The translations under genes and the position numbers were made by a program. The notes below the pieces were generated by a model. The model was not told the origin of the DNA. It was given only the letters and a program-made list of their open reading frames with translations, and searched no databases. From Acholeplasma sp. (GTDB lineage: Bacteria; Bacillota_I; Bacilli_A; Acholeplasmatales; UBA5453): a stretch of 64,000 nucleotides of DNA. Where the stretch lies: positions 32,001-96,000 of the forward strand of contig JAVBWN010000012.1 of NCBI GenBank assembly GCA_036677365.1, written 5' to 3'. This document shows positions 29,928 through 64,000 of the stretch, piece by piece (within the stretch, counting starts at the first letter, position 1; every line of letters starts with the position of its first letter).

Positions 29928-30058
29928 AAACAAATTTATAAAAGAAGACAAAATTTGTTAAAATATAGATAATACGTACGGTTCATTAATTTAAACAAAT
30001 AAGACTATATGCCATCCATTGATTTTCAAACGTTTATCTGAAAGGGTAGGATCCATGA

Positions 30059-35476: not shown

Positions 35477-36166
35477 ATGAATATAATCGATCACTCGGAT
35501 AAGTTTTTAAAAGACGGAATTAAAATACAGGTTCTCGAAATAATTGTAGATAATATTGAAAGCCATGCATCAAATTTAATTGAAATATTAAAGTCTACAC
35601 TTTGGATAGATAAGTTAGATATTTTTATGCAAAAGGCATATAGAGCTACATCAAAGAAAACCATTGAAAAACTAGTTCAAATATTTAGCGATGCTAAAAA
35701 TAGTGAGATTAGTTCTTCATTTGGTGAGTATCTAGTTAGTATTGTGTCTGGGTTAGCATTAGAAAGAGAGTTTGGCCACGAAAGGATACCTATTTCTGAA
35801 TTATTAAAAGAAAAAGTTACAGGTAATGCAAGTTTTGACTATCACACTATCGATGATAATGTATTTGTGTTTGGAGAATCTAAATATTCCTCAGTTGATA
35901 ATCCTTATAATGATGCAATTCAACAAGTTAAGGAATTTATTGCGGATGGAAAAGATGATATGGACTTGATTCATCTTAAGAATTTCAGTACGAAAGCAAG
36001 TGAAAACTATATACTAGAAAAAAAACATTATTCAATTTCATTTTCAATAGTATCTAGAAATAGATTATTGGTTTTAAAACATGCTGTAGATAATTATGAT
36101 TATTTTAAGAAGTTTGATAAATGGTATGTTATAGGGGTGATAATTGATGATAATATCGAAGGATAA
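35477..36166 (+). CDS. PD-(D/E)XK nuclease-like protein, HamA/DUF1837-like
   Basis: FGEY...FDYH...FGESKY pattern; overlaps the downstream Ski2-like helicase. Confidence 0.65.
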   Translation: MNIIDHSDKFLKDGIKIQVLEIIVDNIESHASNLIEILKSTLWIDKLDIFMQKAYRATSKKTIEKLVQIFSDAKNSEISSSFGEYLVSIVSGLALEREFGHERIPISELLKEKVTGNASFDYHTIDDNVFVFGESKYSSVDNPYNDAIQQVKEFIADGKDDMDLIHLKNFSTKASENYILEKKHYSISFSIVSRNRLLVLKHAVDNYDYFKKFDKWYVIGVIIDDNIEG

Positions 36167-38369
36167 TTTGGATGCGGAAAACATACTAATTGAGACACTT
36201 GAAAAAATTAGAACTAGTGGTCCTAACGACTATGATGAAATGGAAACGTTATCGCATATAAAACTTAACCACAACGAGATTTTCATTAAGTACGAATCAC
36301 ATCTTTTGTTTTTGTTAGGGTTATTTTATAAAACAAGTGAGCCTAGAAACATAGTAGATCTTTATCTTAATGAGCTATCTTTGGTTATTAAAGCAGAGAC
36401 AAACATGACATTGTCAATTTTACAAGCAGATATTTATAACAAAATTAAGGAAAGTTTGGTTTTTTCTTTTTCTGCACCAGCAAGTGTAGGGAAATCTCAT
36501 CTTCTAAAAGAACTAATTTATTTAGGTGAAAGAGATGTAGTAATTGTAGTACCATCAAGAGCACTTATTGCTGAATATATTATTGATATTAAAAGTAGAG
36601 TTGACAATAACGTACTAGTTTTACCGTTTATAGATATTATAAATGCTAAGAACACAACTAGAAAAATATATGTAATTACTCCAGAACGAGGAATAGAATT
36701 ATTCAAGTATAAAGGTAAGTTAGACATCGAAATATTCTTTTTTGATGAGGCACAAATATCGGAAGATACAATCAGGGGAATGATATTTGACTCATTTGTC
36801 AGAAGAGTTAAGACTGAATTTCCCGATGCAAAAAAGATTTTTGCTCATCCATATGTGGATAATCCAAATGCTCAACTATTAAAACATAGTTTTGTAACCC
36901 ATTCTACGGCCACAAGATATAATCAAAATACTGTAGGAAAAATATTCGTATCGTGGAATGAAATTGATTTTGAATATTTCTCACCAAACAATAAGAAGAT
37001 TATTGAAAAGATTGATTTTGATATGTTTGATCAACTGTTTGAATCTGGAAAAACACTATTAATATATGCTTCAAAAAATCAAATTAATGATTCAACTAGA
37101 GTGTATCCATTTATTAAAAAATATATTAAGCATTTCCCATCAATTCAGGATAAACGAGCACTAGAGTTAATTCAACAAATGAAAGACTATATTGGTGCTG
37201 ATGATAAAAATAAAAAATCACAGATGATTAGTTATATGAAAAGAGGAATAGTGATGCATCACGGTTCCATGCCTCTTAGAATGAGATTTATTATCGAAGA
37301 GTTTATCAGATTTAATTATGCGAAGATTTGTTTAGCAACATCTACTTTACAACAAGGTATTAATATGCCGTTTGATGCTATTTTTATTGACAATTTTAAT
37401 AGACTACAAACACTATACTTGAAAAATTTGATTGGTCGTGCTGGGAGATCAACAAAACAACCATATTTTGATTATGGATATATTATAGTGAAAAAAAAGA
37501 ATATGAATACATTTATTAATAGAATGAATCAACAATTTGAAATACAAGCGACTTCAAGACTGGATACTCAAGAAGATTTTACTGATATCGATCTACAAGA
37601 TATTGTGGAAGCATCTAGAAATAACACATTCGATGATAAACTGGAAATAACGAAAACACAAGTCGATAGACTAAAAGATTCTAATTTGGATACTAGGATT
37701 GAATCATTATTGGATAACATAGCAGATAATGGTGAAATAAATCTAACTAGTATGAATAGTGTTATTAGGGATGAACTTAAAACGTGTTTAAAAGATATTT
37801 TCATTTCTCATCTAAAAAGAAAGGTATTAACCAAGTATGAAAATAGTATTTTACGTATAGCATTAACAATATATTTATGGAAAATTCAGAAGAAATCATT
37901 TAAAGAAATAATAGCAATACGTTACAATTATTTTCTTAATAATTTTAAGGATAATGCTCCTATTTTTAGTCAAAGTCCCCATAATTTACCAAACAAAAAT
38001 GCTAGATATCAAAACGCTTTTGAAAAACAATCTATCGAAAAATTTAATTACGATACGCTAATATACGACACTTATGATTATTTAGATAAAGTCATTGGAT
38101 TTTCATTAAAAGATCCCATTTCAGCTTATTTTTATATCTTTTACGAAAAATACAAAGATAAAAGGGCTTTGATTATGTACAAATTGCTTAAGTATGGAAC
38201 TTCAGATGAAGATGAAATATTGATGTTAAGATATGGATTTGAGTTTGAAGACTTTGATTGGCTCAAACCAGTCATAAGCAAAATATCAGAGGACAATATT
38301 GAGTTTAACGACAAAACTAGTGATTTGAGTGAACAACAATTAGCAATTATTAACAAGTATGCTTTTTAA
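36147..38369 (+). CDS. Ski2-like SF2 helicase, HamB-like
   Basis: APASVGKS, VPSRALI, TPER, DEAQ, HHGSMP, ATSTLQQGINMP, NLIGRAGR; start ATG 36147 or TTG 36144. Confidence 0.85.
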   Translation: MIISKDNLDAENILIETLEKIRTSGPNDYDEMETLSHIKLNHNEIFIKYESHLLFLLGLFYKTSEPRNIVDLYLNELSLVIKAETNMTLSILQADIYNKIKESLVFSFSAPASVGKSHLLKELIYLGERDVVIVVPSRALIAEYIIDIKSRVDNNVLVLPFIDIINAKNTTRKIYVITPERGIELFKYKGKLDIEIFFFDEAQISEDTIRGMIFDSFVRRVKTEFPDAKKIFAHPYVDNPNAQLLKHSFVTHSTATRYNQNTVGKIFVSWNEIDFEYFSPNNKKIIEKIDFDMFDQLFESGKTLLIYASKNQINDSTRVYPFIKKYIKHFPSIQDKRALELIQQMKDYIGADDKNKKSQMISYMKRGIVMHHGSMPLRMRFIIEEFIRFNYAKICLATSTLQQGINMPFDAIFIDNFNRLQTLYLKNLIGRAGRSTKQPYFDYGYIIVKKKNMNTFINRMNQQFEIQATSRLDTQEDFTDIDLQDIVEASRNNTFDDKLEITKTQVDRLKDSNLDTRIESLLDNIADNGEINLTSMNSVIRDELKTCLKDIFISHLKRKVLTKYENSILRIALTIYLWKIQKKSFKEIIAIRYNYFLNNFKDNAPIFSQSPHNLPNKNARYQNAFEKQSIEKFNYDTLIYDTYDYLDKVIGFSLKDPISAYFYIFYEKYKDKRALIMYKLLKYGTSDEDEILMLRYGFEFEDFDWLKPVISKISEDNIEFNDKTSDLSEQQLAIINKYAF

Positions 38370-38423: not shown

Positions 38424-38963
38424 ATGAACATCAATGATAAGAATTCAGAACCAATAAAATCTCTTTCAGATTTTGTAAATCAATATAGAAAAAACCTTGG
38501 AATCATTTTCAAGGACCCAAGTAAAAGTCTATATTACAGAGGAGAAAGCATGGATTATGGTGATTATAGACTTACTCCCAAAGTTTATAGAAAGAACATT
38601 ATTCCAAAATCATCGATTTAATGTTTCTAATCTATATAAGATGTCATATGTTAAACCTATACTTATTAATGAAAAATAAAAAAACAATCGGGTTTATTTG
38701 GTGTTTTTGGATTGAATGATAATGGTCTAAGCTTCATTAGCTATGCTAATTCGAAAAAGACAATTCTAGCAGAATTATCATTTATGACAGGAATAGACCA
38801 CTTTTCGCTTTTTGGTGGAATTGAAGGTTTATCACGAGATTATAAAATTGAATTGTACTACATATTCGTAAACTCGTCGAAAAAAACAAATGTAATACGG
38901 GAGGAAAAATGCAAAATTACGTTGATTATCAAAAATCTATTTCACTTGAGTTATCGGGGCTAA
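38424..38963 (+). pseudogene. Degraded FRG-domain gene
   Basis: YYRGE...LTPKVYR start; VKPILINE-frameshift-IKKQSGLF; ILAELSFMTGIDHFSLF end; the QHYG/PTRLLD core is absent. Confidence 0.75.
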
Positions 38964-39661
38964 AAAATAGAGTTCGCAATTTTATCGGTTCTGCAAACTG
39001 GAATGAGGAAGGTAGATATAAAGAATCGATACTAATTGACATACTCAAAAGAGCTTTACCAGCACACGTTGGTATTGGAACTGGTTTTGTCATTAATAAC
39101 GATGGAGAAATAACTAAACAAATTGATATCCTAGTGTATGATACTAGGATACCTTTGCTTTTTAAAAAAAATGAGTTTATTTTAACAACAAAAGAATGCG
39201 TATATGGGATTATTGAGGTTAAAACTAAATTGAATAACACCAGTTTCATGACTACTATTGATAATTCATTTCACAATGGAACAATTATTAATAAAAATCA
39301 TAAAAAGAAAATTTTCAATGGAATCTTTTGTTATGATAATGAAGTCACATATTCTGGAATGGTAAAGATGAGATTATTGTCTACTAATGGTGTTGTAAAT
39401 CACATTTCATTGGGTGAACACCAGTTTATCCGATTTTGGCAGAAAGGATTTCCCACACAATCATACCAAAATAATCATTTTGGAGTTTATGAAATGGATA
39501 CACTATCATTTGGTTATTTCATATCAAATTTGGTGGCACATGTTTATGAGAAAGATGACAAAAATTCTACTAGAAATGATCAACTTTATAAATATCTCTT
39601 TCCTATTGACGGAACAAAAGAATCCCGTAGGTTACATACATGGAATATCAGTGAGGATTAA
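38909..39661 (+). CDS. DUF6602/NucC-like restriction-endonuclease-fold protein
   Basis: GRYKE...LP, GTGFVI, KQIDILVYD, ECVYGIIEVKT (ID...EVK catalytic pattern). Confidence 0.75.
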   Translation: MQNYVDYQKSISLELSGLKNRVRNFIGSANWNEEGRYKESILIDILKRALPAHVGIGTGFVINNDGEITKQIDILVYDTRIPLLFKKNEFILTTKECVYGIIEVKTKLNNTSFMTTIDNSFHNGTIINKNHKKKIFNGIFCYDNEVTYSGMVKMRLLSTNGVVNHISLGEHQFIRFWQKGFPTQSYQNNHFGVYEMDTLSFGYFISNLVAHVYEKDDKNSTRNDQLYKYLFPIDGTKESRRLHTWNISED

Positions 39662-40366: not shown

Positions 40367-41122
40367 ATGGAAAAAGAAAAAATAATAAAGAAACTAATAT
40401 TCAATCAAAACATTGATACAGAAATCAATGATGTTGAGTTTTATTTGAGAGTTAAAGGTGTTGCATTTCATCAAAGAGTAATGACGCATTTAGGTGTTGA
40501 TTTTAATGATTCCAATTCGTATATTGAATGGGTAAAAGTATCAGCATTATTGAGATACGATAAAAAACTGCGAGATAAAATATACATATATCTTGCAACC
40601 CTTGAGGAATACATAAGAGCTTATTTAAGTAACAAGTATGAAAATGAACCAGTTCAACCATTTTGGAAAAACGGGGCAAAGTCTCGCCACAATGTTAAAA
40701 CTAGGATACTAAATGGTGAGAACATTTTTGATGTTCTTCAATCAATTGAGTTTGGTCACTTATTATCACAAGTAGAGAATGTCTCAAAAGATGATATAAA
40801 TGAAATGTTTGATTATCCATACGCAATTCATGATAACTTAGGGGCTGTTAAAGAATTAAGGAATGCGGTTAGTCATCATGTTTTTTTAATGGATTATAAG
40901 TTTATGAATTGTGTTGTTAATGGAATTAATAATAATACATTAGAACATAACATAAAAAACCTAAGACAATTATTACCAAAAGAGTATAGATTTGGGAAAA
41001 ACGGAAATGGTGGGATTACTGCTGATATAGACAACTGTAAATACGAAAAAGCAAATAGTAGTAGAATAACAGAAAAGCTTCTGATGAAACTGGATAGTAG
41101 AGACATCGTAAACATGAATTAA
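40367..41122 (+). CDS. Abi-family (AbiD/AbiF-like) HEPN protein
   Basis: LLRYDKKLR...LEEYIR, EFG, and the Rx4H motif LRNAVSHH. Confidence 0.8.
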   Translation: MEKEKIIKKLIFNQNIDTEINDVEFYLRVKGVAFHQRVMTHLGVDFNDSNSYIEWVKVSALLRYDKKLRDKIYIYLATLEEYIRAYLSNKYENEPVQPFWKNGAKSRHNVKTRILNGENIFDVLQSIEFGHLLSQVENVSKDDINEMFDYPYAIHDNLGAVKELRNAVSHHVFLMDYKFMNCVVNGINNNTLEHNIKNLRQLLPKEYRFGKNGNGGITADIDNCKYEKANSSRITEKLLMKLDSRDIVNMN

Positions 41123-55138: not shown

Positions 55139-55257
55139 AAAAAGAATATCTACAAAATTATCTTTTTTTATTATAGATTAATTAGCATTTTGTTGACTGT
55201 TCTATACTAAGACCATTTAGTCATGATACAATCATATTAGATTTGAAAGGATTATTC

Positions 55258-56304
55258 ATGGAGATAGATAATACAAGTAAACTTCATAATAGTGAAGTAG
55301 AAGAAATAAATGTTTCTAGAGAATACCTAAGGATAAATACTGAATATTTATTTAATAGACTATTTACACAAATTTCATACTACAAAAAATTCGATTATAG
55401 AATTGGAAGTCTTAAAGACCAAATAAAAAAATATGAAATATCCGTTGGATTAATCATTACGTTAATGGTATTTATTCTTTTTATAGGAGTGTTTTGGTGG
55501 ATAAAAGTATTGTTACTTTTGTTACCATTTTTCTACGTTATTAAACTTTTTATTAGTATTCACAAAATAAATACTATAGTTAACAAACTAACAACTTCTA
55601 TGAATCATAAAAAAATGAAATTAGTTTTTGAAAAATCCATTTTTGTCACATATATGAAGAATCAAAGTAATCATTCTTATGATTCTCTATATAATATCTC
55701 ATCTAATCATGGATATTTAATAAGAGATAACCATAATCAAATAATTCTGTTTCCGAATTTTGCTCTTGTTATAGATGATAAAAAAATGGATATGTATTAT
55801 GGGGATGCCTTAATAAGCATGACAGCACATCAGTCTCAAGTTTTATCCGATATTTTATCACGAAAACATAAGTTTAGAACCTTATCTTATCAAAAATGGC
55901 AATATCAGCGAAAAGATGGTGGACCTGATCGAAGATATTCAAATAATCAACTGTACAATTTTTACGAATGTAACTATTTAAAAGTGTTTGATTTTTCATT
56001 TGATATTCCAAATGTCAATACATACAACCAGCTACTTAAAGAATGGAAGTTATCTCTTTCATCAGCAGACAATTACAATATCAATAGTAGTCAAAAGAAG
56101 TCCATGAATTTTGACACAATAGCTAACTTATCTAAAGAAGCAATTATTAGATATTTAGTAGACAAAAAAATCATTCATAATGATTATGGCGATATGATTG
56201 AGATTGAGTATAATCGAGACACATATATGATAGACAACAAAGGATTTATTAAAGACTCAAAACTAAATATCATCGATTTATTGGAGGGTTTACTAAATGA
56301 TTGA
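55258..56304 (+). CDS. Membrane protein with KDGGPDRRY motif
   Basis: Two adjacent TM helices; WQYQRKDGGPDRRYSNN; overlaps the helicase start. Confidence 0.7.
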   Translation: MEIDNTSKLHNSEVEEINVSREYLRINTEYLFNRLFTQISYYKKFDYRIGSLKDQIKKYEISVGLIITLMVFILFIGVFWWIKVLLLLLPFFYVIKLFISIHKINTIVNKLTTSMNHKKMKLVFEKSIFVTYMKNQSNHSYDSLYNISSNHGYLIRDNHNQIILFPNFALVIDDKKMDMYYGDALISMTAHQSQVLSDILSRKHKFRTLSYQKWQYQRKDGGPDRRYSNNQLYNFYECNYLKVFDFSFDIPNVNTYNQLLKEWKLSLSSADNYNINSSQKKSMNFDTIANLSKEAIIRYLVDKKIIHNDYGDMIEIEYNRDTYMIDNKGFIKDSKLNIIDLLEGLLND

Positions 56305-59300
56305 ATTGAATAGTATATATAAGAGTTATAAGCAAAGACTTGTTAGTATTGACTCTAGAAATAGTTCCTTTTTTCTATCTAAACTATTACCAAAAAGACA
56401 TATAGACTTAACAAAACTTGCCACGAACCTTAACCATTTTGACGATTTGGAAAATGGATTGATTGAGTCCAAATCCATAACATTGTCGAAGTTAGAGATT
56501 GACAAAGATGAATTATTGGAAATATTCACTAATTATGAAGAAGATTACAGGGAAACGGTAAGAGAGATAATACCGACTTTCAAAGATTCTGATTTTGAAT
56601 ATTATGAAAAACTTTTAGATAAAAGGGAAAGTGACATAAAAATTGAACTATTCATAAAACAGCTTTTGAGCAATTATGAATCGGACTCTTTAAAACTAAT
56701 ACAACAATTTTCAAGACTCGATAAACAAGCAAAAGCCATAGAACGTGACATTGGGAAAAATGATTTGTATTTAGGGTTTCCCTTCATAGAAGGAAAATTT
56801 CAAAATGGTAAGAACTTTAGAGGTCCTCTTATTTTACAGCGTGTTAGCCTAACCGATTACAGTGACTCGGTAAAAATCGATATTCAATCCGAAGGTAAGA
56901 TTATTAATCCTGTTTTTTTATTGTCATATTTAAATGAGAATGGGAAGGAATACAGAAGATTTGAATTTGAAATTCCTGATCAATCAGAGGATTATATTGA
57001 GTACACAATGGATTTTTTGAACAAGAACAATATCAATATTAGAAAAGTTCAAAAACGTTTTGAAGTGATTGAAAGTCTTACAAAGTCAGAATACGAAAAA
57101 AAATACTTTAATGATATCAACAAGTTTGATATTAAATTCTATGCCGTTTTAGGATTGTTCCCTATTTCGAGTAGAAGTATATATGATGATTTAGATTATC
57201 TCGATAAAAACCCCAAAAAATCATCTGAAACACTTGAGAATTTTTTTAACGGTTATAAAAATTTCGATGATGAATTTGATGATAAGACACCTAAAGAGTC
57301 GATGATTAAGTATATCTCACCTTTAGATTGGAGCCAGAGAATTGTCGTAAAAAATGCATTAGAAAAAGATTTAGTTATTGAAGGGCCCCCTGGCACAGGC
57401 AAATCACAGACTATTGTAAATATAATTGTAAATCTGCTTTTGCAAAATAAGAAGGTTCTCGTTGTATCAGAAAAGTTAGCTGCGATTGAAGTTGTCTATA
57501 ATAGATTAGGAAAATTGCGTGAGAATACTTTGATTATAAAGGACTATATTCGCAATAAAGAAGATTTCTTCAAACAAATTATTGACACTAAATCAACACT
57601 GAATAATTATGACGAAACATATTCCTATAATCATTACTCAGATACCGTAATTGATGAATACTTAGGAGTACTAAAAAAGATTAATAAAAAGGAATACTAT
57701 CAAGGTAAAAGCATTAATGAACTGATTGAGTTCACTAAGAAACACAAAAATTATTCTTTGAGTATTGAACAAAATATTATCCTAAAAAAACTAATCAATT
57801 TTTATGTAAGTAAAAAAAAGTCAATTGATGACCAAGTATTAAGATTAACCTATTTAAGTTCTAGTGTTACATTAGACAAGTTAGAGTTCTTCTTAAGTAT
57901 GAAAAACACAGAAATATTCAAGACCTTAGGCTTCCAAGGTATTCAGTTTTTTTCTACTCAAACAGAAGCGAATCAGCGAAAGGAATTTATACAGTATAAC
58001 TACTATTTGAGCAAGACTAATAAACCGCTAATTGACAGATTTGATGATGTTTGTTTTAATGCTGGTTTAGAACCAAGGATTTTCACGTATACTGCACTAG
58101 AAACCTATGTGAACAATTTGTATGCAAAAATTAATCTACACAAAAAGTCTTTGTTAAAGATTACAGATCCACTTTATGCTGAACTGTCTTTCGATAAAAA
58201 GAAAGTAGATATTGCAATACAATATCCCAATATAAATAGAAATGAGTTAGCGTTAAGGATTAAAAGATTGAAAGAGCCGAATTACAATCAAACATTCATT
58301 CAGAAGCTATTTAGAAAACCAATCGAACTCTCAAATGAAGAAGAAAATTTTAAGGAATACCTTGAAAATTACGGCGATGTAATTGATCGTTTGGCTTTAA
58401 AAGAAATACATGGGGACATGTTAAAAGTAGATATTGTTATTGCTAATGAGTATTTAAATAGAAATTATAATTCTGTCTCAAGTTTGTTCGGAATGCTTCT
58501 AAATTCAGATTTGGTTCAGTTTAAAGATGGAAGTTTTGATCGAGTTTTTGATTTGTACAAATCTTCTTTAACGTCCATAAATATTTCAGTATATAATGAA
58601 ATGAGTTCTTTGATTGAAGAAGAAATTTTATACATAGAAAAGTGTAATAATCTCCCAGTAAATGATGATGATTTTAAGCAATTTATTCAATATTTAAACA
58701 TTGATCACCATACACTAAATGAGTTGATTATGATTGAAAGCTATTTGCAAGCTTTCGATTCAAACTATAAAAATGTCACGAATAGTTTAAATGATAAATA
58801 TAATGACTCCCTGAACATGGTTTATAATCACATGAAGAAAAGTCTAAATCAAGTTTTTAGATATAACAACGATCTTTATCGTGAATATAACGCATTGATT
58901 GGTCAAGCAGAACTTAAGAGACGCAAATCGATTAAGACAATATTTGATAGATATGGTAAACCGATATTATCTATATTTCCAGTAATATTGATGACACCTG
59001 AGGTAGTTTCCACTGCTTTCCCAATGCAAGAGGGACTTTTTGATTATGTAATTTTCGATGAAGCTTCTCAAATGTTTATTGAAAGAGCTGTCCCAGCAAT
59101 TCATAGAGCCAAAAGAGTGATTATCGCAGGTGATTCTAAGCAATTAAAGCCTTCGTCCACATTTCAAGCTAGATTAGCGGAATCTGAAGAACTAGACGAT
59201 GATGAGAATGTAACTAATCTTGAATTAGAAGCATTGGACAAAGAAAGCTTGCTAGAAATGGCAAAAGAAAAATATACAAGCAAAATGATTCAATTTCATT

Positions 59301-60337
59301 ATCGATCAGAACATGAAGAGTTAATCGAATTCTCAAGTGCAGCTTTCTATGAAGGAAAACTCTTTTTCGCTTCCAAAATAAATGGTGGAAAGTGGAAAAA
59401 ACCGATTGAGATAGTTAAGGTCAGCGATGGGCTTTGGACTTCTGAAAACACTAACCCTGTTGAAGCAGAATCTGTTGTAAAAATCGTGTCGCAATTACTT
59501 AATAAACGAAAGTTCAATGAAACGATAGGTATAATCACATTTAATATTAAACAAAAAGAACTTATACAAGACATGCTTCTAGAATCGGATAATAGACTAA
59601 TTAATTTGGAACTTAATCGAGTAAATCCACAGACTGGCGACGATGAAGGTCTTTTTGTTAAGAATATAGAAAATGTTCAAGGGGATGAACGTGATATCAT
59701 CATATTTTCAATTGGGTATGCTAAGAATAAAGATGGTAGAGTTAGAGCTCAATTTGGGCTCCTCAATCAATCTGGTGGAGAAAATCGTCTTAATGTAGCA
59801 ATTACGCGTGCAAAGAAAAAAATCATTGTGGTAAAATCTATTGAATCAGATGAATTACAAGTAAATGAACATATTCCGGGACCAACAAGACTAAAACAGT
59901 ATTTGAAATTTGTCGAACTGGTGCATAGCCAAAAAAGTGAAGATAAAAAGATTTTACTAAACTCGATTTGTGATTCAAGTTCTATATTTCATGAAAAAAT
60001 TCAAACTTTTGATTCACCATTTGAATTGGAAGTATTTCAAGAAATATCTAGGATTAAACCATCGAATATTGAACTTAGAAACCAAGTCAACGTAGGTGGA
60101 TTTCTAATTGATATTGCACTATACGACAAAGATTTAAACAAATTCATTCTAGGCATAGAATGCGATGGTTATCAGTATCATTCCAAACCTGAAGATGTTG
60201 AAAGGGATTTCCATAGACAACAATATTTGGAAAGTAGAGGTTGGCAAATTCACAGAATCATCAGTACAAATTGGTTTAGAGATAAGTTATCTGAAGTAGA
60301 AGTTGTGAAAACTTTAATGGGTTCGACTGTATCCTAG
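56297..60337 (+). CDS. DUF4011 / Upf1-like SF1 helicase / Vsr-like nuclease fusion (Hhe-like)
   Basis: RLVSIDSRN, LYLGFP; GPPGTGKSQTI, FDEASQ, GDSKQLKP, HYRS, ENVQGDERD, RLNVAITRA; FDSPFE, IECDGYQYH, LESRGW. Confidence 0.88.
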   Translation: MIELNSIYKSYKQRLVSIDSRNSSFFLSKLLPKRHIDLTKLATNLNHFDDLENGLIESKSITLSKLEIDKDELLEIFTNYEEDYRETVREIIPTFKDSDFEYYEKLLDKRESDIKIELFIKQLLSNYESDSLKLIQQFSRLDKQAKAIERDIGKNDLYLGFPFIEGKFQNGKNFRGPLILQRVSLTDYSDSVKIDIQSEGKIINPVFLLSYLNENGKEYRRFEFEIPDQSEDYIEYTMDFLNKNNINIRKVQKRFEVIESLTKSEYEKKYFNDINKFDIKFYAVLGLFPISSRSIYDDLDYLDKNPKKSSETLENFFNGYKNFDDEFDDKTPKESMIKYISPLDWSQRIVVKNALEKDLVIEGPPGTGKSQTIVNIIVNLLLQNKKVLVVSEKLAAIEVVYNRLGKLRENTLIIKDYIRNKEDFFKQIIDTKSTLNNYDETYSYNHYSDTVIDEYLGVLKKINKKEYYQGKSINELIEFTKKHKNYSLSIEQNIILKKLINFYVSKKKSIDDQVLRLTYLSSSVTLDKLEFFLSMKNTEIFKTLGFQGIQFFSTQTEANQRKEFIQYNYYLSKTNKPLIDRFDDVCFNAGLEPRIFTYTALETYVNNLYAKINLHKKSLLKITDPLYAELSFDKKKVDIAIQYPNINRNELALRIKRLKEPNYNQTFIQKLFRKPIELSNEEENFKEYLENYGDVIDRLALKEIHGDMLKVDIVIANEYLNRNYNSVSSLFGMLLNSDLVQFKDGSFDRVFDLYKSSLTSINISVYNEMSSLIEEEILYIEKCNNLPVNDDDFKQFIQYLNIDHHTLNELIMIESYLQAFDSNYKNVTNSLNDKYNDSLNMVYNHMKKSLNQVFRYNNDLYREYNALIGQAELKRRKSIKTIFDRYGKPILSIFPVILMTPEVVSTAFPMQEGLFDYVIFDEASQMFIERAVPAIHRAKRVIIAGDSKQLKPSSTFQARLAESEELDDDENVTNLELEALDKESLLEMAKEKYTSKMIQFHYRSEHEELIEFSSAAFYEGKLFFASKINGGKWKKPIEIVKVSDGLWTSENTNPVEAESVVKIVSQLLNKRKFNETIGIITFNIKQKELIQDMLLESDNRLINLELNRVNPQTGDDEGLFVKNIENVQGDERDIIIFSIGYAKNKDGRVRAQFGLLNQSGGENRLNVAITRAKKKIIVVKSIESDELQVNEHIPGPTRLKQYLKFVELVHSQKSEDKKILLNSICDSSSIFHEKIQTFDSPFELEVFQEISRIKPSNIELRNQVNVGGFLIDIALYDKDLNKFILGIECDGYQYHSKPEDVERDFHRQQYLESRGWQIHRIISTNWFRDKLSEVEVVKTLMGSTVS

Positions 60338-60664
60338 TGGCCTAAGCGAAAAAGACTTACGAATGCTTTTCTTATGTACACATAATTGCTAATAGATAAA
60401 TAGAAAACCTAGGTTTGTTAATATGGTTGTTTTTCTATAGACGATATTTTATATGGAATTTTTAATAAATCTTTATAAGTAACATAATAAATCAAAAATA
60501 CATTTGAAAGAGAGTATTTTATGTGAGATGATTTTACCGTATTTTGATGTACTAAAAAATCGTTGTATAGATATCAAGTTAATGATAAAATTTAAGTAGT
60601 ATTCTATAATTTGAAATAGTCATCTGTAACAGTTTTATAAAATATTGGATGGGGAGGTATCGAT

Positions 60665-61570
60665 ATGTCATATGCTTTTTATTATATGTTAACACCGAGA
60701 TGCTTGCTTAACTGTGGGTATTGTTTCAGAGATACTAGTAAAGAATCCCTAGAAAGAGAACTTACACTCGAAGATAAGAAAAAAGTTTTGACCTCTTTAG
60801 TAGAGGTTTTTTATGCTAGAAAAATTACACTATCTGGTGGTGAACCCACCATTACTGGTGGTGTAGTACTTACTCAATTTCTAGATTTAATGAGTCACGT
60901 TAAAGAACTTAAATTGAATCACCCAACACTTAGAATCGAGTTGTTAACGAATGCTATTTTATTAGATAGAGATGTGCTCGAAAAATTGGTGGGCATTGTC
61001 GATAGAATCACAATAACATTGGACACAATTAATGAAGAAATCTTAGAGAAAATTGGCCGAAACACTGGAAAATATAACAACTATTTAAGTCGGTTTAAAC
61101 AAAGAATGATGGATATGAACGACTTAGGATTTGAAACAAAAATTCATTCAGTGATTACACCAGTTAATTACGATTATCTAGAAGAATTAGCACAATATAT
61201 CAAAGATAATAACCACTTATTCAAAATTAATCGTTGGAAGTTTTATCAGTATATGACATACGATGATCCAGTTAAAGATGCCATTTATCAAATAGATGAT
61301 AATAAGTTTGATATTATGTGCAAAAAAATCTCAAGTATCATAGATGGCACTGGCATTGATGTTACATTCAAGGATAATAAACTGATGTTAGATTCTATGC
61401 TGAATTTGACTCACTATGGATGCTTAGAACACGTGACCATATTGGATGGCATTAAAAGAAACTTTGTATCAAAGCCGATTTGGTTATATCCCAATCTAAT
61501 GGAATTATTAAATGATATTCATTTACCAATAGAAAAACTGAACCAGTATCATAGCTATCAAGATGAGTAA
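60665..61570 (+). CDS. Viperin-like radical SAM enzyme
   Basis: CLLNCGYC, KITLSGGEP, TNA, ITLDT, KIGR, KIHSVI, RWKFYQ, N.LMLDS colinear with viperin motifs. Confidence 0.75.
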   Translation: MSYAFYYMLTPRCLLNCGYCFRDTSKESLERELTLEDKKKVLTSLVEVFYARKITLSGGEPTITGGVVLTQFLDLMSHVKELKLNHPTLRIELLTNAILLDRDVLEKLVGIVDRITITLDTINEEILEKIGRNTGKYNNYLSRFKQRMMDMNDLGFETKIHSVITPVNYDYLEELAQYIKDNNHLFKINRWKFYQYMTYDDPVKDAIYQIDDNKFDIMCKKISSIIDGTGIDVTFKDNKLMLDSMLNLTHYGCLEHVTILDGIKRNFVSKPIWLYPNLMELLNDIHLPIEKLNQYHSYQDE

Positions 61571-62279
61571 ACAAGTCTTATTCACTATGGATATAGATTG
61601 GGTCAGCGAACCTGTGATGAAAATCACAATTGATTATATTAAACAATTAAACATACCTTTTCTTATTTTTCAAACTCACATTAGCGAAAGCCTAGTTAAA
61701 GAAACGTCACCATTGATTACATTTGAACTTCATCCAAATTTTTGTGATGGTAGTGATCATGGTAAAACAACTAAAGACGTTATCGAAACCATTTGTAAAT
61801 TTCCTCATAAAGGTCAATCGATTCGCGCACATAAATACTTTATGCCTGATGATGCAATCAAACACATTGATCAGTTTGATTTCAAATATACATTGAATAA
61901 CTTTACAAATTTGAATTATCAAAAACCTGTGAAGATTACTGATAAACTAACAGAGATTCATACATTTTTTGAAGATGGCATTTACTTGAAAAATAAACAA
62001 CCATTAGATGTTGATTTTGTCATTTCAAAAATGAAATCAGATGGATTATATGTGTTCAATATTCACCCGATTCATATCGCTTTTAATGAAAAGGATTATC
62101 AATTAACGCGAAACTTTAAAGACTCGATGACTAAAGATGAGTATCGGTCTATAAGTGCTGAGTTTATTAATAAAAATAAATACAATGGGTATGGAATTGC
62201 TTCGTTTATTAAAGATCTTGTAAAAGAGCTTAAACAAATGGGATATGATTTCATACATATAGGAGAAGTAATCATATGA
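61563..62279 (+). CDS. WbmS-like polysaccharide deacetylase (CE4-like fold)
   Basis: TMDIDW, ELHPNF, IRAH, FFED, FNIHPIH. Confidence 0.75.
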   Translation: MSKQVLFTMDIDWVSEPVMKITIDYIKQLNIPFLIFQTHISESLVKETSPLITFELHPNFCDGSDHGKTTKDVIETICKFPHKGQSIRAHKYFMPDDAIKHIDQFDFKYTLNNFTNLNYQKPVKITDKLTEIHTFFEDGIYLKNKQPLDVDFVISKMKSDGLYVFNIHPIHIAFNEKDYQLTRNFKDSMTKDEYRSISAEFINKNKYNGYGIASFIKDLVKELKQMGYDFIHIGEVII

Positions 62280-64000
62280 TTAAATGTGTTCTCTTAGACA
62301 TAGGTAATACACTGGTATCCAAGAGTGGAAATAATGTCGTAGCACCAGTATTGAAAATGGATATTTTGAGATTAAGAAAACAAGGCATTAAGGTTGGTGT
62401 TGCATCTATGAGAACATATGACCTTGCAAAAAGAATTCTTAATGGAATTGATTTTGATTTCTATATATGTTTAAGCGGTGCGCAAATATTTGTGGATGAT
62501 AAACTTTGTTATGATCAACCAATAGATTATCAAGAATCAGCACATCCTTATGTAATTTATTACAGTAACTCAGAAACCTATGCACTCGATGAAGTATCGG
62601 CGAAACTTGGTAGGGAAAAAGGGTTTGTCGTTGAAACAGTCAAATCGAGTCATACGGAAAACCTATATAATGTTTCGTTACTCGATGTAGAGGGAACAGA
62701 AGTAGATTCGTACAAATCAACATACCATACAGAGTATTGGAGTAGAATTAAAGTTTTGGTGCTCCAAAATCCATTGACATCCAAAGCGAATGCAGTTGAT
62801 TTTATAGCAAATTACTATGGGTTCAAACATGATGAACTATTGGGATTTGGTGATGGCCCCAATGATATCGAGTTTCTATCGAGATGTGGCATATCTGTAG
62901 CCATGGGGAAAAATTATAAGGAACTGATGGATTCAACTACTTTTGCGACTGACAAGGAAGGCAATTTAGGCGTTTCCAAAGCTTTAAGGAAATTAGGATT
63001 AATCCAGGATAAAGTGATTCTATTCATCGAATCAGTTAACGAAATCGGTGGTATGGAAATGCACGGTATGTATTTTATGGATTACTTTAAAGAATACACT
63101 GAACTTATCGTAGTTACTCATCAAAACAACAATAATGTTATTGTCTATAAAAACAATACTTGGATTAATGCAAGGATTGATGACATAGGTGTTTTTATAA
63201 AAGAATATGATGCACCAAACACAATGGTTTTCTTCAATTCGGGTCATTGGATTGAAGAAATGTCATTAATACGATATGCATGCCCAAAATCAACCATATT
63301 TTATAGAACTGGTGGCAATGACATCATATCCTCACCAATGCTTGATTTAACGATGAAAGCTAGCGATCGAAGAGTGTTTTGGAAAAACACAATTAATGAG
63401 GTTGTTAATCACCTCATAACCAATAGCGACTTAACAGAACGAAGACTTGTTGATTTTGGTATTAAAAATCATATTCTATACAAGGTGGTTGGAGGCGTGA
63501 ATGTTGCCATAATTCAACAACTGAATGATCAATATTTTGATATCCGAACGGAACTTTTTACACATGAAGGTAGGATTAATTTAGTATCAGTAACAAGATT
63601 TGAACCTTATAAACGAGTAGAGTTGTTGTTACAGACCATGAGTTTATTGGATAGCCATTTATATCATCTTTATTTGATTGGAAATGGACCTTTATTCAAT
63701 GAACTATATAATAAATACAATCATTTGGAACAGGTGACTTTTTTAGGAAAACAAGCACATGATACTGCTTTAAAATATATTTGTGCAGCAGATTTCTATA
63801 TACAATTTAGCGGAGACACTGTGACCAATCTAGATGGATTAACATATATCCATACGGAGGGAATGGGAAGAACCTTACTAGAAGCAATTACTGCAAGAAC
63901 ACGAGTCATCGTAACAAGATGTGGTGCGTTTGAAGAAATAATTGATGACACCCGTGGTGTGATTATGGATAGTAGTGACCCTAAAGAATTATCTATCATA
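62276..64000 (+). CDS. Cof-type HAD hydrolase fused to a GT4 (GT-B) glycosyltransferase, 3'-truncated by the window edge
   Basis: Translated by hand, open for 575 codons: LDIGNTL, ASMR, SKANA, FGDGPND; then GGMEMH, RFEPYK, IGNGP, EGMGRTLLEA. ATGA overlap with the deacetylase stop. Confidence 0.88.
   Translation, partial: MIKCVLLDIGNTLVSKSGNNVVAPVLKMDILRLRKQGIKVGVASMRTYDLAKRILNGIDFDFYICLSGAQIFVDDKLCYDQPIDYQESAHPYVIYYSNSETYALDEVSAKLGREKGFVVETVKSSHTENLYNVSLLDVEGTEVDSYKSTYHTEYWSRIKVLVLQNPLTSKANAVDFIANYYGFKHDELLGFGDGPNDIEFLSRCGISVAMGKNYKELMDSTTFATDKEGNLGVSKALRKLGLIQDKVILFIESVNEIGGMEMHGMYFMDYFKEYTELIVVTHQNNNNVIVYKNNTWINARIDDIGVFIKEYDAPNTMVFFNSGHWIEEMSLIRYACPKSTIFYRTGGNDIISSPMLDLTMKASDRRVFWKNTINEVVNHLITNSDLTERRLVDFGIKNHILYKVVGGVNVAIIQQLNDQYFDIRTELFTHEGRINLVSVTRFEPYKRVELLLQTMSLLDSHLYHLYLIGNGPLFNELYNKYNHLEQVTFLGKQAHDTALKYICAADFYIQFSGDTVTNLDGLTYIHTEGMGRTLLEAITARTRVIVTRCGAFEEIIDDTRGVIMDSSDPKELSII

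Follow-up and report, generated by a model that had tools for sequence, protein, structure and literature searches.

What does a viperin-like radical S-adenosylmethionine (rSAM) enzyme do when its gene overlaps genes of sugar metabolism? The question was raised by three open reading frames (ORFs) at the 3' end of a 64,000-nucleotide stretch of Acholeplasma sp. DNA (contig JAVBWN010000012.1, positions 32,001 to 96,000; hereafter the window, with coordinates counted from its first letter). An initial annotation had described them as three overlapping genes behind an intergenic region of about 330 nucleotides (nt), forming an operon that might make a modified sugar or nucleoside, or a modified surface glycan, possibly as a chemical defence against phages. 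The arrangement was confirmed. On the forward strand, a 301-amino-acid (aa) rSAM ORF (60665-61570), with the ribosome-binding site GGGGAGG directly before its ATG at 60665, overlapped by 8 nt (61563-61570, junction ATGAGTAA) a deacetylase ORF of 238 aa (61563-62279). The deacetylase ORF in turn overlapped by 4 nt, at the ATGA of 62276-62279, a 575-aa ORF (62276-64000) that met no stop codon before the window end. The third ORF was a fusion of an N-terminal phosphatase-type domain of the HAD-IIB (Cof-like) class (62276-63010; Hydrolase_3, TIGR01484) with a family 4 glycosyltransferase (GT4) domain, here called GTa (63026-64000; Glycos_transf_1, Glyco_trans_1_4), which was truncated by the end of the window. 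Upstream, a 1346-aa helicase-nuclease ORF ended at 60337 and left a gap of 327 nt before the rSAM ORF. We propose, with about an even chance of being right (probability roughly 0.5), that a self-contained mobile cassette starts here, with these three genes as its 5' portion, and that its product is a small, soluble, exported glycoside of N-acetyl-hexosamine or hexosaminuronic acid units.

The cassette and its conservation in 47 related loci

A search of one genome per species (185,579 species) with two peptide patterns of the rSAM family returned 61 loci, a lower bound because only pattern matches could be found. Mapping of the window proteins by tblastn placed rSAM, deacetylase and GT4 genes together in the loci numbered L001 to L047, and L048 to L061 carried a distant rSAM gene without these partners. 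With the cassette defined by Pfam assignments of the neighbouring genes and then by mapping with 31 query proteins, the rSAM, the deacetylase, GTa orthologues and a second GT4 (GTb) were present in 47/47 loci and the HAD-IIB domain in 46, the exception being L029. The three window genes were syntenic or fused in every one of the 47, which bears out both the conservation of their synteny and the initial view of them as one functional unit in a sugar-type pathway.

The genes came in two orders. Layout A, found in 11 loci and the window, read [HAD_2]-rSAM-[HAD_2]-deacetylase-HAD-IIB-GTa-GTb-epimerase-[dehydrogenase], and layout B, found in 36 loci, read [dehydrogenase-epimerase]-GTa-GTb::HAD-IIB-rSAM-deacetylase. 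Neighbouring enzymes were joined into single proteins in different combinations: HAD-IIB::GTa in the window, GTb::HAD-IIB in layout B (for example in L037), HAD_2::rSAM in L001 (protein P0019), and a 1294-aa HAD::GT4::GT4::epimerase in L004. Shuffled in this way between lineages, the fusions are good evidence that the enzymes share one pathway.

The additional genes pointed to amino-sugar nucleotides. The epimerases of L037 and L002 scored 392.5 and 250.8 bits, both above the NCBIfam cut-off of 210 for the non-hydrolysing WecB type. For the L037 dehydrogenase the best model was UDP-ManNAc dehydrogenase (394 bits, under the equivalog cut-off of 459); for that of L002 the general NDP-sugar-dehydrogenase model came first (328.5 bits) and UDP-ManNAc dehydrogenase second (305.7 bits), and both proteins exceeded the cut-off of the general model. 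Recurrent neighbours were identified by clustering 345 flanking ORFs within 6 kb. A ComB-like protein (2-phosphosulfolactate phosphatase family, PF04029) was encoded directly after the deacetylase and convergent with it in 20/47 loci, all of layout B, and we infer that this protein and the HAD_2 of layout A are unrelated phosphatases filling the same step. ABC genes lay within 6 kb in 16/47 loci, and 12 of these were exporters in which permease and ATPase (transmembrane and nucleotide-binding domains) were fused, with lengths of 520-712 aa. Pfam confirmed the ComB-like protein on L037, L012 and L046 and the ABC protein on L037, L012 and L030. In NCBIfam the L037 exporter was nearest to MsbA, a glucan exporter and HepA, all under their cut-offs, with PglK also near.

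The proteins of the three window genes fitted this picture. The deacetylase matched the WbmS-like family PF22537 at 104.6 bits (Pfam cut-off 27), and its only match in the PDB was WbmS itself (3hft, E = 1.5e-8), which by its PDB name comes from an O-antigen locus. Residues D10, D12, H57, H66, R88, H90, E137, D138, H168 and H171 were conserved in 42 or more of the 44 family rows; retention of this Asp/His set would fit an active metal-dependent amidase, with catalytic roles predicted for these residues. GTa scored 59.7 bits against Glycos_transf_1 PF00534 (cut-off 26.4) and 55.2 against Glyco_trans_1_4 PF13692 (cut-off 27) in Pfam. A profile of GTb found only generic retaining GT4 enzymes in the PDB, namely TarM or TarM-like proteins, BshA, MshA, sucrose-phosphate synthase (6kih) and TreT.

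The HAD-IIB domain matched Hydrolase_3 in Pfam (94 bits) and passed TIGR01484 (50 bits, cut-off 41.8), remained below the cut-off of the Cof subfamily (TIGR00099, 89.4 versus 137 bits), and had sugar-phosphate phosphatases of the BT4131 type as its PDB matches. Its motif I in the window was D-I-G-N-T (62297-62311). The form D-x-G-N-T was common to the window and all 11 layout-A loci (L001-L005, L020, L023, L024, L033, L034 and L045), as opposed to the canonical D-x-D-G-T of 33 layout-B loci. In HAD phosphatases the second Asp of motif I (Asp+2) serves as general acid/base. Since the change was conserved across layout A, it does not reflect decay, and the layout-A domain may bind phosphate, transfer it, or only slowly hydrolyse it.

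The operon continues past the window, as initially supposed: the third ORF lacked a stop codon, its 98%-identical relative P0230 was 619 aa long, and in related loci a GT4, an epimerase and a dehydrogenase came next. The third window protein is thus probably 619 aa in full. The rSAM likewise had a relative at 98% identity (P0001). A long HAD-GT-GT-epimerase fusion was also considered for this gene and is unlikely, because the known fusions of that kind (1294-1300 aa) were only about 40% identical to it.

Some copies of the cassette were decaying. Those at L040:7257-11562 and L046:8313-10907 were frameshifted, and L040 and L013 were contigs of one metagenome-assembled genome (MAG), which held one decayed and one intact copy.

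The rSAM clade beside the prokaryotic viperins

By both sequence and fold, viperins are the nearest known family to the rSAM protein. In Pfam the window protein scored 77.2 bits against Radical_SAM PF04055 (gathering threshold 29.5). Its best NCBIfam model was the prokaryotic viperin model viperin_w_prok NF038283, at 99.1 bits against a cut-off of 180, with MoaA next at 66 bits, and its sole PADLOC matches were the two models for prokaryotic viperins (pVips), at 104 and 99 bits. Six other members of the family, among the matches listed, reached 73.1-103.6 bits on NF038283, and 16 library proteins, the true pVips of our comparison, scored 213-305 bits. Viperin and viperin-like proteins also led the solved relatives found by sequence (E 7.7e-11 to 3.9e-8; MoaA 3e-4) and those found with a profile of the family (E 9e-16 to 6e-12; MoaA 3e-10). 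The family was sharply bounded, with 8 matches at E <= 1e-30 and only 46 at E <= 1e-10 in a phmmer search of 1.84 billion representatives, and the ESM Atlas clusters for the protein were named only 'radical SAM protein'.

An AlphaFold2 model built from 37 family sequences was of high confidence (predicted local distance difference test, pLDDT, 94.8; predicted template-modelling score, pTM, 0.91) and showed the viperin fold with its barrel-closing C-terminal extension. The 15 best rows listed by Foldseek (printed ranks 1-19) were all viperin or viperin-like, with template-modelling (TM) scores of 0.68-0.76 over about 290-310 aligned columns and E-values of 5.6e-16 to 2.1e-13; the best TM scores, 0.72-0.76, were to mouse and fungal viperins. 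The first non-viperin match was SuiB at rank 26, followed by DesII (rank 36, E = 4.4e-10), NifB and MoaA.

Nearness did not extend to membership. An IQ-TREE tree of 61 rows comprised 17 family members (the window protein and 16 hand-picked from 76 word-search matches), 16 pVips above the cut-off, 22 viperin-like proteins below it, 4 MoaA and 2 AhbD-like proteins. The family formed one clade and the pVips another, each with support of 100/100 and present in 100% of 200 bootstrap trees. A quick tree gave the same picture, grouping the family, the pVips and the sub-cut-off proteins (SH-like approximate likelihood-ratio test, SH-aLRT, 93) with MoaA and AhbD-like proteins outside. With a score below the family cut-off and a clade of its own outside the pVips, the rSAM gave one of the results that the initial annotation had named as counting against its reading; it is, from its sequence, a member of a distinct clade beside the prokaryotic viperins and not of the viperin family proper.

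The difference was located by comparing 16 pVip rows with 23 rows of the family, column by column. The CxxxCxxC motif (C13/C17/C20) and GGE (G58-G59-E60) were invariant across all rows of both groups, and N96, D120, G131-R132, K159, V163, N168, K192 (the Lys of RWK), M241 and G252 were further positions common to both; within the family, WKFYQY at 191-196 was invariant. The pVip N-x-H, K-x-N and S-Y motifs and the C-terminal Arg were, by contrast, replaced in all or nearly all of the 23 family members. Before the Cys motif the N and H of N-x-H gave way to Y6 and M8, the N of K-x-N to H161, a conserved E to K236, the Y of S-Y to L or M at 245, a conserved M to N247, and the C-terminal R-G to F/Y295-H296. 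A short insertion after G252, folded as a hairpin in the AlphaFold2 model, was particular to the family. In mouse viperin numbering, obtained through a HMMER alignment (offset 44; cluster cysteines at 84, 88 and 91), the kept residues K/R53, R132, K159 and K192 aligned with K120, R194, K220 and K247, and the replaced ones with N77, H79, N222 and Y302. These mouse residues we take to be CTP contacts or catalytic residues. Retention of the basic residues fits an anionic or phosphorylated substrate, and the pocket would thus still bind a phosphate-bearing, anionic ligand, with the part that holds and transforms the ribose rebuilt. The initial statement that the first gene follows viperin motifs along its length therefore stands as to the nearest family and as to the cluster, SAM and basic residues; it does not stand as to the hallmark residues, which were replaced, or the family score (99 versus 180 bits).

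Proposed pathway and alternatives

In the pathway that we propose, a WecB-type epimerase would convert UDP-GlcNAc to UDP-ManNAc, and the UDP-ManNAc-dehydrogenase-like enzyme, where present, would supply what is probably UDP-ManNAcA. On a phosphorylated acceptor, the two retaining GT4 enzymes would assemble a molecule like a di- or trisaccharide, and the phosphate would be handled by the HAD-IIB domain that is fused to one of these enzymes, as in sucrose-phosphate synthase/phosphatase. The WbmS-like enzyme would strip one N-acetyl group, and the viperin-like rSAM would tailor the sugar by means of a 5'-deoxyadenosyl radical, acting on a substrate that probably retains a phosphate group or a linked nucleotide. 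Completion and export of the product would fall to the second phosphatase (ComB-like or HAD_2) and the MsbA-like ABC exporter. We infer this order of steps and these substrates, and also that what leaves the cell is a small molecule and not a glycan linked to lipid. The radical step could be a dehydration, as in viperin and AprD4, a deamination next to a freed amine, as in DesII, a decarboxylation, as in BlsE, or an epimerisation, as in NeoN, and it cannot be named from sequence. The constant pairing of the rSAM with the deacetylase and their translational coupling slightly favour a reaction at the freed amine or at a neighbouring position.

The cassette most probably serves its carriers in their interactions with hosts or competitors. 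Its retention in small genomes (Chlamydiota, Rickettsiales, Holosporales, Cardinium and Mycoavidus) suggests that the product matters to bacteria living within or next to other cells, and this product could represent an amino-sugar natural product of a new type. A bolder reading, which we regard as unlikely, would make the rSAM clade a metabolic sister of viperin that applies viperin-type radical chemistry (hydrogen abstraction, then loss of the neighbouring hydroxyl or amine) to a UDP-sugar or phosphorylated glycoside rather than to a free nucleoside triphosphate, with a didehydro-deoxy amino- or nucleoside-sugar being exported. If this were true, the product would be a chemical weapon or shield of intracellular symbionts and of predatory and gut bacteria against viruses, hosts or rivals, and the clade would show the kind of enzyme that antiviral viperins arose from. 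Viperins have been treated as a purely immune family, in trees rooted on the distant MoaA; a preprint on viperin evolution follows this rooting, and its available text does not discuss sister clades (10.1101/2023.09.13.557418). A well-separated sister clade in a sugar pathway offers a handle on the other capacities of the viperin scaffold and on the metabolic source enzyme of this form of immunity.

Several observations weigh against a soluble exported glycoside. The data do not distinguish it from a surface glycan linked to lipid. Capsule, O-antigen and teichuronic acid loci, too, are routinely equipped with WecB, WecC, GT4 enzymes and deacetylases, and the gene for a priming transferase could be located in another part of the genome. 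An exporter was absent from most loci. The PDB matches of GTb, being generic and alike in E-value (4e-16 to about 1e-10), did not settle the type of acceptor. Asp+2 of the HAD-IIB domain was absent from the window and from all layout-A loci, where the domain is possibly no phosphatase. Finally, the window itself showed only three cassette genes, and no GTb, HAD_2, epimerase or dehydrogenase was found elsewhere in its 64 kb.

The cassette might be a surface glycan module, making a lipid-linked oligosaccharide with ManNAc(A) and a de-N-acetylated sugar (for a capsule, O-antigen, teichuronic-acid-like polymer or glycolipid head group) that an ABC protein of the MsbA/PglK type flips and in which the rSAM tailors one residue. 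We consider this somewhat unlikely. The WecB, the WecC-like dehydrogenase, the GT4 enzymes and the WbmS-like deacetylase, whose namesake stems from an O-antigen locus, are typical of polysaccharide loci, the exporter was nearest to MsbA, HepA, the glucan exporter and PglK, extra glycosyltransferase genes flanked L010 and L019, and ABC-2 permeases occurred in the flanks of L011 and L047 only. However, a Pfam scan of the cassette flanks (79 proteins less 4 members of the ComB-like and ABC clusters, leaving 75) found Wzx, Wzy, Wza, a chain-length regulator or a priming transferase in 0/75 proteins, so that the scanned flanks did not show the ordinary capsule setting in which the initial annotation had seen a possible objection to its reading. 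The flanks varied by locus, with housekeeping genes such as those for IF-2, RF-1, chorismate synthase, 6-phosphogluconate dehydrogenase and Trk, and with integrases or transposases in six loci; such varied and often mobile contexts speak against a polysaccharide locus. So do the cassette proteins, all of which matched families of soluble enzymes, and the two phosphatase-type genes fixed in the cassette and fused to a glycosyltransferase or the rSAM, to our knowledge not a feature of polymer loci. The compatible-solute routes, in which a glycosyl-phosphate synthase and phosphatase make an intracellular osmolyte or storage glycoside (compare sucrose, mannosylglycerate and glucosylglycerate), would explain the fusion of GT4 with HAD-IIB, the presence of sucrose-phosphate synthase (6kih) and TreT among the matches of GTb, and the ComB-like or HAD_2 phosphatase, which suggests a phospho-hydroxy-acid. 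We judge a solute very improbable nonetheless, as we know of no solute pathway with an rSAM or a de-N-acetylase, an exporter in 12 to 16 loci argues against a retained solute, and the patchy, mobile distribution is unlike that of a stress-core function.

A true antiviral viperin, making 3'-deoxy-3',4'-didehydro nucleotides that end viral RNA chains next to unrelated or accessory neighbours, is highly unlikely. The best family models, solved relatives and folds are all viperin, and the CxxxCxxC, GGE, GR, K and RWK positions are common to both, but the rSAM scored 99 bits against a cut-off of 180 (73-104 for the six other members among the matches listed), stood in a clade separated with 100/100 support from the 16 proteins above the cut-off, and lacked the N-x-H, KxN, S-Y and C-terminal Arg signatures in (nearly) all 23 members compared; its gene was never solitary or linked to a kinase, and in 47/47 loci it accompanied a deacetylase and glycosyltransferases. 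A role in chemical defence, as an exported aminoglycoside-like or nucleoside-sugar-like inhibitor of phages and viruses or of rival or host cells, would specify what the product does and would not contradict the soluble glycoside; we hold it to be unlikely. In its favour, the window cassette comes after an island with HamB-like, NucC-like and Hhe/PDC-S37-like genes, three unrelated loci had AbiEi/AbiEii pairs immediately adjacent to the cassette (L019:13790-15319, L023:7765-8631 and L025:12387-13920), L027 had a TIR protein and L014 a CapP/RmrA-like protein as the other clear PADLOC matches, a nonribosomal peptide synthetase (NRPS) and a polyketide synthase (PKS) adjoin in Mycoavidus, 12 to 16 loci have an exporter, and the nearest enzyme family is antiviral. 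The Ophion system, moreover, uses another viperin-related but distinct rSAM (bioRxiv 10.1101/2025.09.30.679545, as described in its available text). Against it, only 16/124 of the nearest flanking proteins, in 13 loci, matched PADLOC at E <= 1e-15, the remainder of these matches being to generic PDC candidate, ankyrin and TPR models; as no null expectation accompanies this count, it neither shows nor excludes enrichment. The deacetylase and the HAD-GT protein had no PADLOC match, no resistance gene was recognised, and many carriers are obligate intracellular bacteria. The cassettes of the 47 loci contained no genes of 2-deoxystreptamine aminoglycoside synthesis, neither a 2-deoxy-scyllo-inosose synthase nor an aminotransferase, and class I/II aminotransferases were confined to flanking genes of L015 and L016. 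The position at the end of a defence island, given in the initial annotation, therefore describes the window, where HamB-like, NucC/PD-DExK-like and Hhe/PDC-S37-like genes do lie upstream, and does not hold as a general property of the cassette.

Among known systems, the cassette resembles sugar-tailoring rSAM gene clusters, and is unusual in its viperin-like rSAM and its concentration in intracellular bacteria. BtrN, AprD4, DesII, BlsE and TunB are likewise rSAM enzymes for amino or uronic sugars, encoded alongside GT4, deacetylase and phosphatase genes, but they presumably belong to rSAM clades other than that of the cassette. The cassette also differs from aminoglycoside and nucleoside pathways in having no 2-deoxy-scyllo-inosose synthase, aminotransferase, short-chain dehydrogenase/reductase-type dehydratase or acyltransferase. 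A retaining GT4 with a HAD phosphatase recalls sucrose-phosphate synthase/phosphatase and the MshA-phosphatase-MshB route to mycothiol, which we take to include a de-N-acetylase as well, but the likeness is at the generic GT4 level only, the cassette deacetylase is WbmS-like and not LmbE-like, and there is a second GT4 and an rSAM. From the pVips, with which the family has in common the partial TIM barrel with its C-terminal extension, CxxxCxxC, GGE, G-R, the KxN Lys and the RWK Lys, it differs in score (NF038283, PADLOC pVip), clade, the residues at N-x-H, N222, Y302 and the C-terminal Arg, the hairpin after G252, and a gene that always lies inside a sugar cassette.

The initial annotation did not recognise this combination as described, and our search of full-text literature likewise found no description of rSAM, deacetylase, HAD, GT4, WecB and WecC together, although preprint supplements or the rSAM list of the 2021 pVip study may hold the clade unnamed. 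The closest analogue in idea is the Undecim Cluster of phage WO and Wolbachia, a conserved island that combines sugar-nucleotide and glycosyltransferase genes with those for an rSAM and an exporter, and that intracellular bacteria such as Wolbachia, Rickettsia and Cardinium have exchanged laterally. According to the available text, it comprises eleven genes (WD0611-WD0621), with a GlmU-like protein, a glycosyltransferase::rSAM fusion tied to methylation, methyltransferases and AprD-type export (PMC9203015). That text names no deacetylase or HAD protein, and 0/47 cassette loci were from Wolbachia; identity of the two was rejected on gene content, by description rather than by sequence. Ophion, with an rSAM related to pVips yet distinct, resembles the cassette in giving such an enzyme other partners. 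Its partners, as far as the accessible text goes, are PHP and phosphoribosyltransferase (PRTase) proteins without sugar genes (10.1101/2025.09.30.679545). The aminoglycoside-like cluster of Rickettsia buchneri is, similarly, a laterally acquired cluster of sugar-antibiotic type, with exporters, in an intracellular symbiont. Its genes as given in the available text include a PIG-L deacetylase, a KanB/BtrR aminotransferase, HemL and a GMC oxidoreductase, and the word 'radical' is absent from that text (PMC8770908); since the gene sets differ, identity with the cassette was rejected here as well.

Spread among bacteria and surroundings of the window locus

The 47 loci were distributed over Pseudomonadota (17), Chlamydiota (12), Myxococcota (5), Bacillota (4), Bacteroidota (4), Gemmatimonadota (2), Planctomycetota (1), a MAG labelled Mycoplasmatota (1) and a MAG labelled Pacearchaeota (1, L045). 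The L045 cassette was near-identical to those of Thiomargarita/Parabeggiatoa (L020 and L024), scoring 770-773 against 775-782 for self, and is likely bin contamination, or else a very recent transfer. We take 23 of the 47 loci to be in lineages of intracellular symbionts or pathogens: Chlamydiota (12), Rickettsiales (3), Holosporales (2), Mycoavidus (2), and Caedibacter, Francisellaceae, Legionellaceae and Cardinium with one each. The rSAM proteins of a Rickettsia endosymbiont and Cardinium were 81% identical, those of Mycoavidus and a Rickettsiaceae MAG 89%, and those of Thiomargarita and a Chitinophagaceae MAG 86%, a closeness across phyla that points to recent transfer. On sequence evidence the cassette is horizontally mobile and rare (47 loci among 185,579 species genomes, as a lower bound). 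Carriage on plasmids or phages was considered and rejected, as tblastn with the rSAM matched none of 72,556 plasmid and 50,697 phage records.

Two neighbourhoods were distinctive. In Mycoavidus (L030:2781-6683 and L038:15855-20885) an NRPS module and a PKS adjoined the cassette, a secondary-metabolite neighbourhood, and in Longimicrobium (L006:5937-7766) a VgrG-like protein (Phage_GPD, Gp5 C-terminal domain) was encoded directly downstream of it.

In the window, the leader or promoter region of the cassette (60338-60664, forward strand) is the gap between the helicase ORF and the rSAM. It matched nothing in Rfam and folded no differently from shuffled sequence (z = 0.64), and a riboswitch or structured leader was accordingly rejected. 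A promoter-like site at 60582-60610 agreed at 10/12 positions; as the scan gave 21 sites in total against 24.7 expected, the site was not above chance.

GC content was 0.38-0.42 between 2 and 30 kb of the window and fell to 0.28-0.33 between 30 and 64 kb, and the boundary of the island likely lies near 30000. The island also held BspA-type leucine-rich-repeat, DUF4116-repeat, DUF2779, NERD and Abi_2 proteins. A HamB-like (Hachiman) helicase (36144-38366) reached 168 bits in PADLOC, and a 229-aa ORF without a family match (35477-36166), which overlaps its start, could be a HamA-type partner. A DUF6602 protein (38909-39661) matched the PD-DExK and NucC nuclease models of PADLOC, with an Abi_2-domain ORF nearby (40367-41122). 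In the region 55243-60337, the 1346-aa protein before the cassette combined DUF4011, helicase and restriction endonuclease domains and scored 529 bits on PDC-S37, 506 on ProA and 370 on Hhe, the latter two far below their cut-offs; a 353-aa ORF without a family match overlaps its start, and the two may form a two-gene defence unit.

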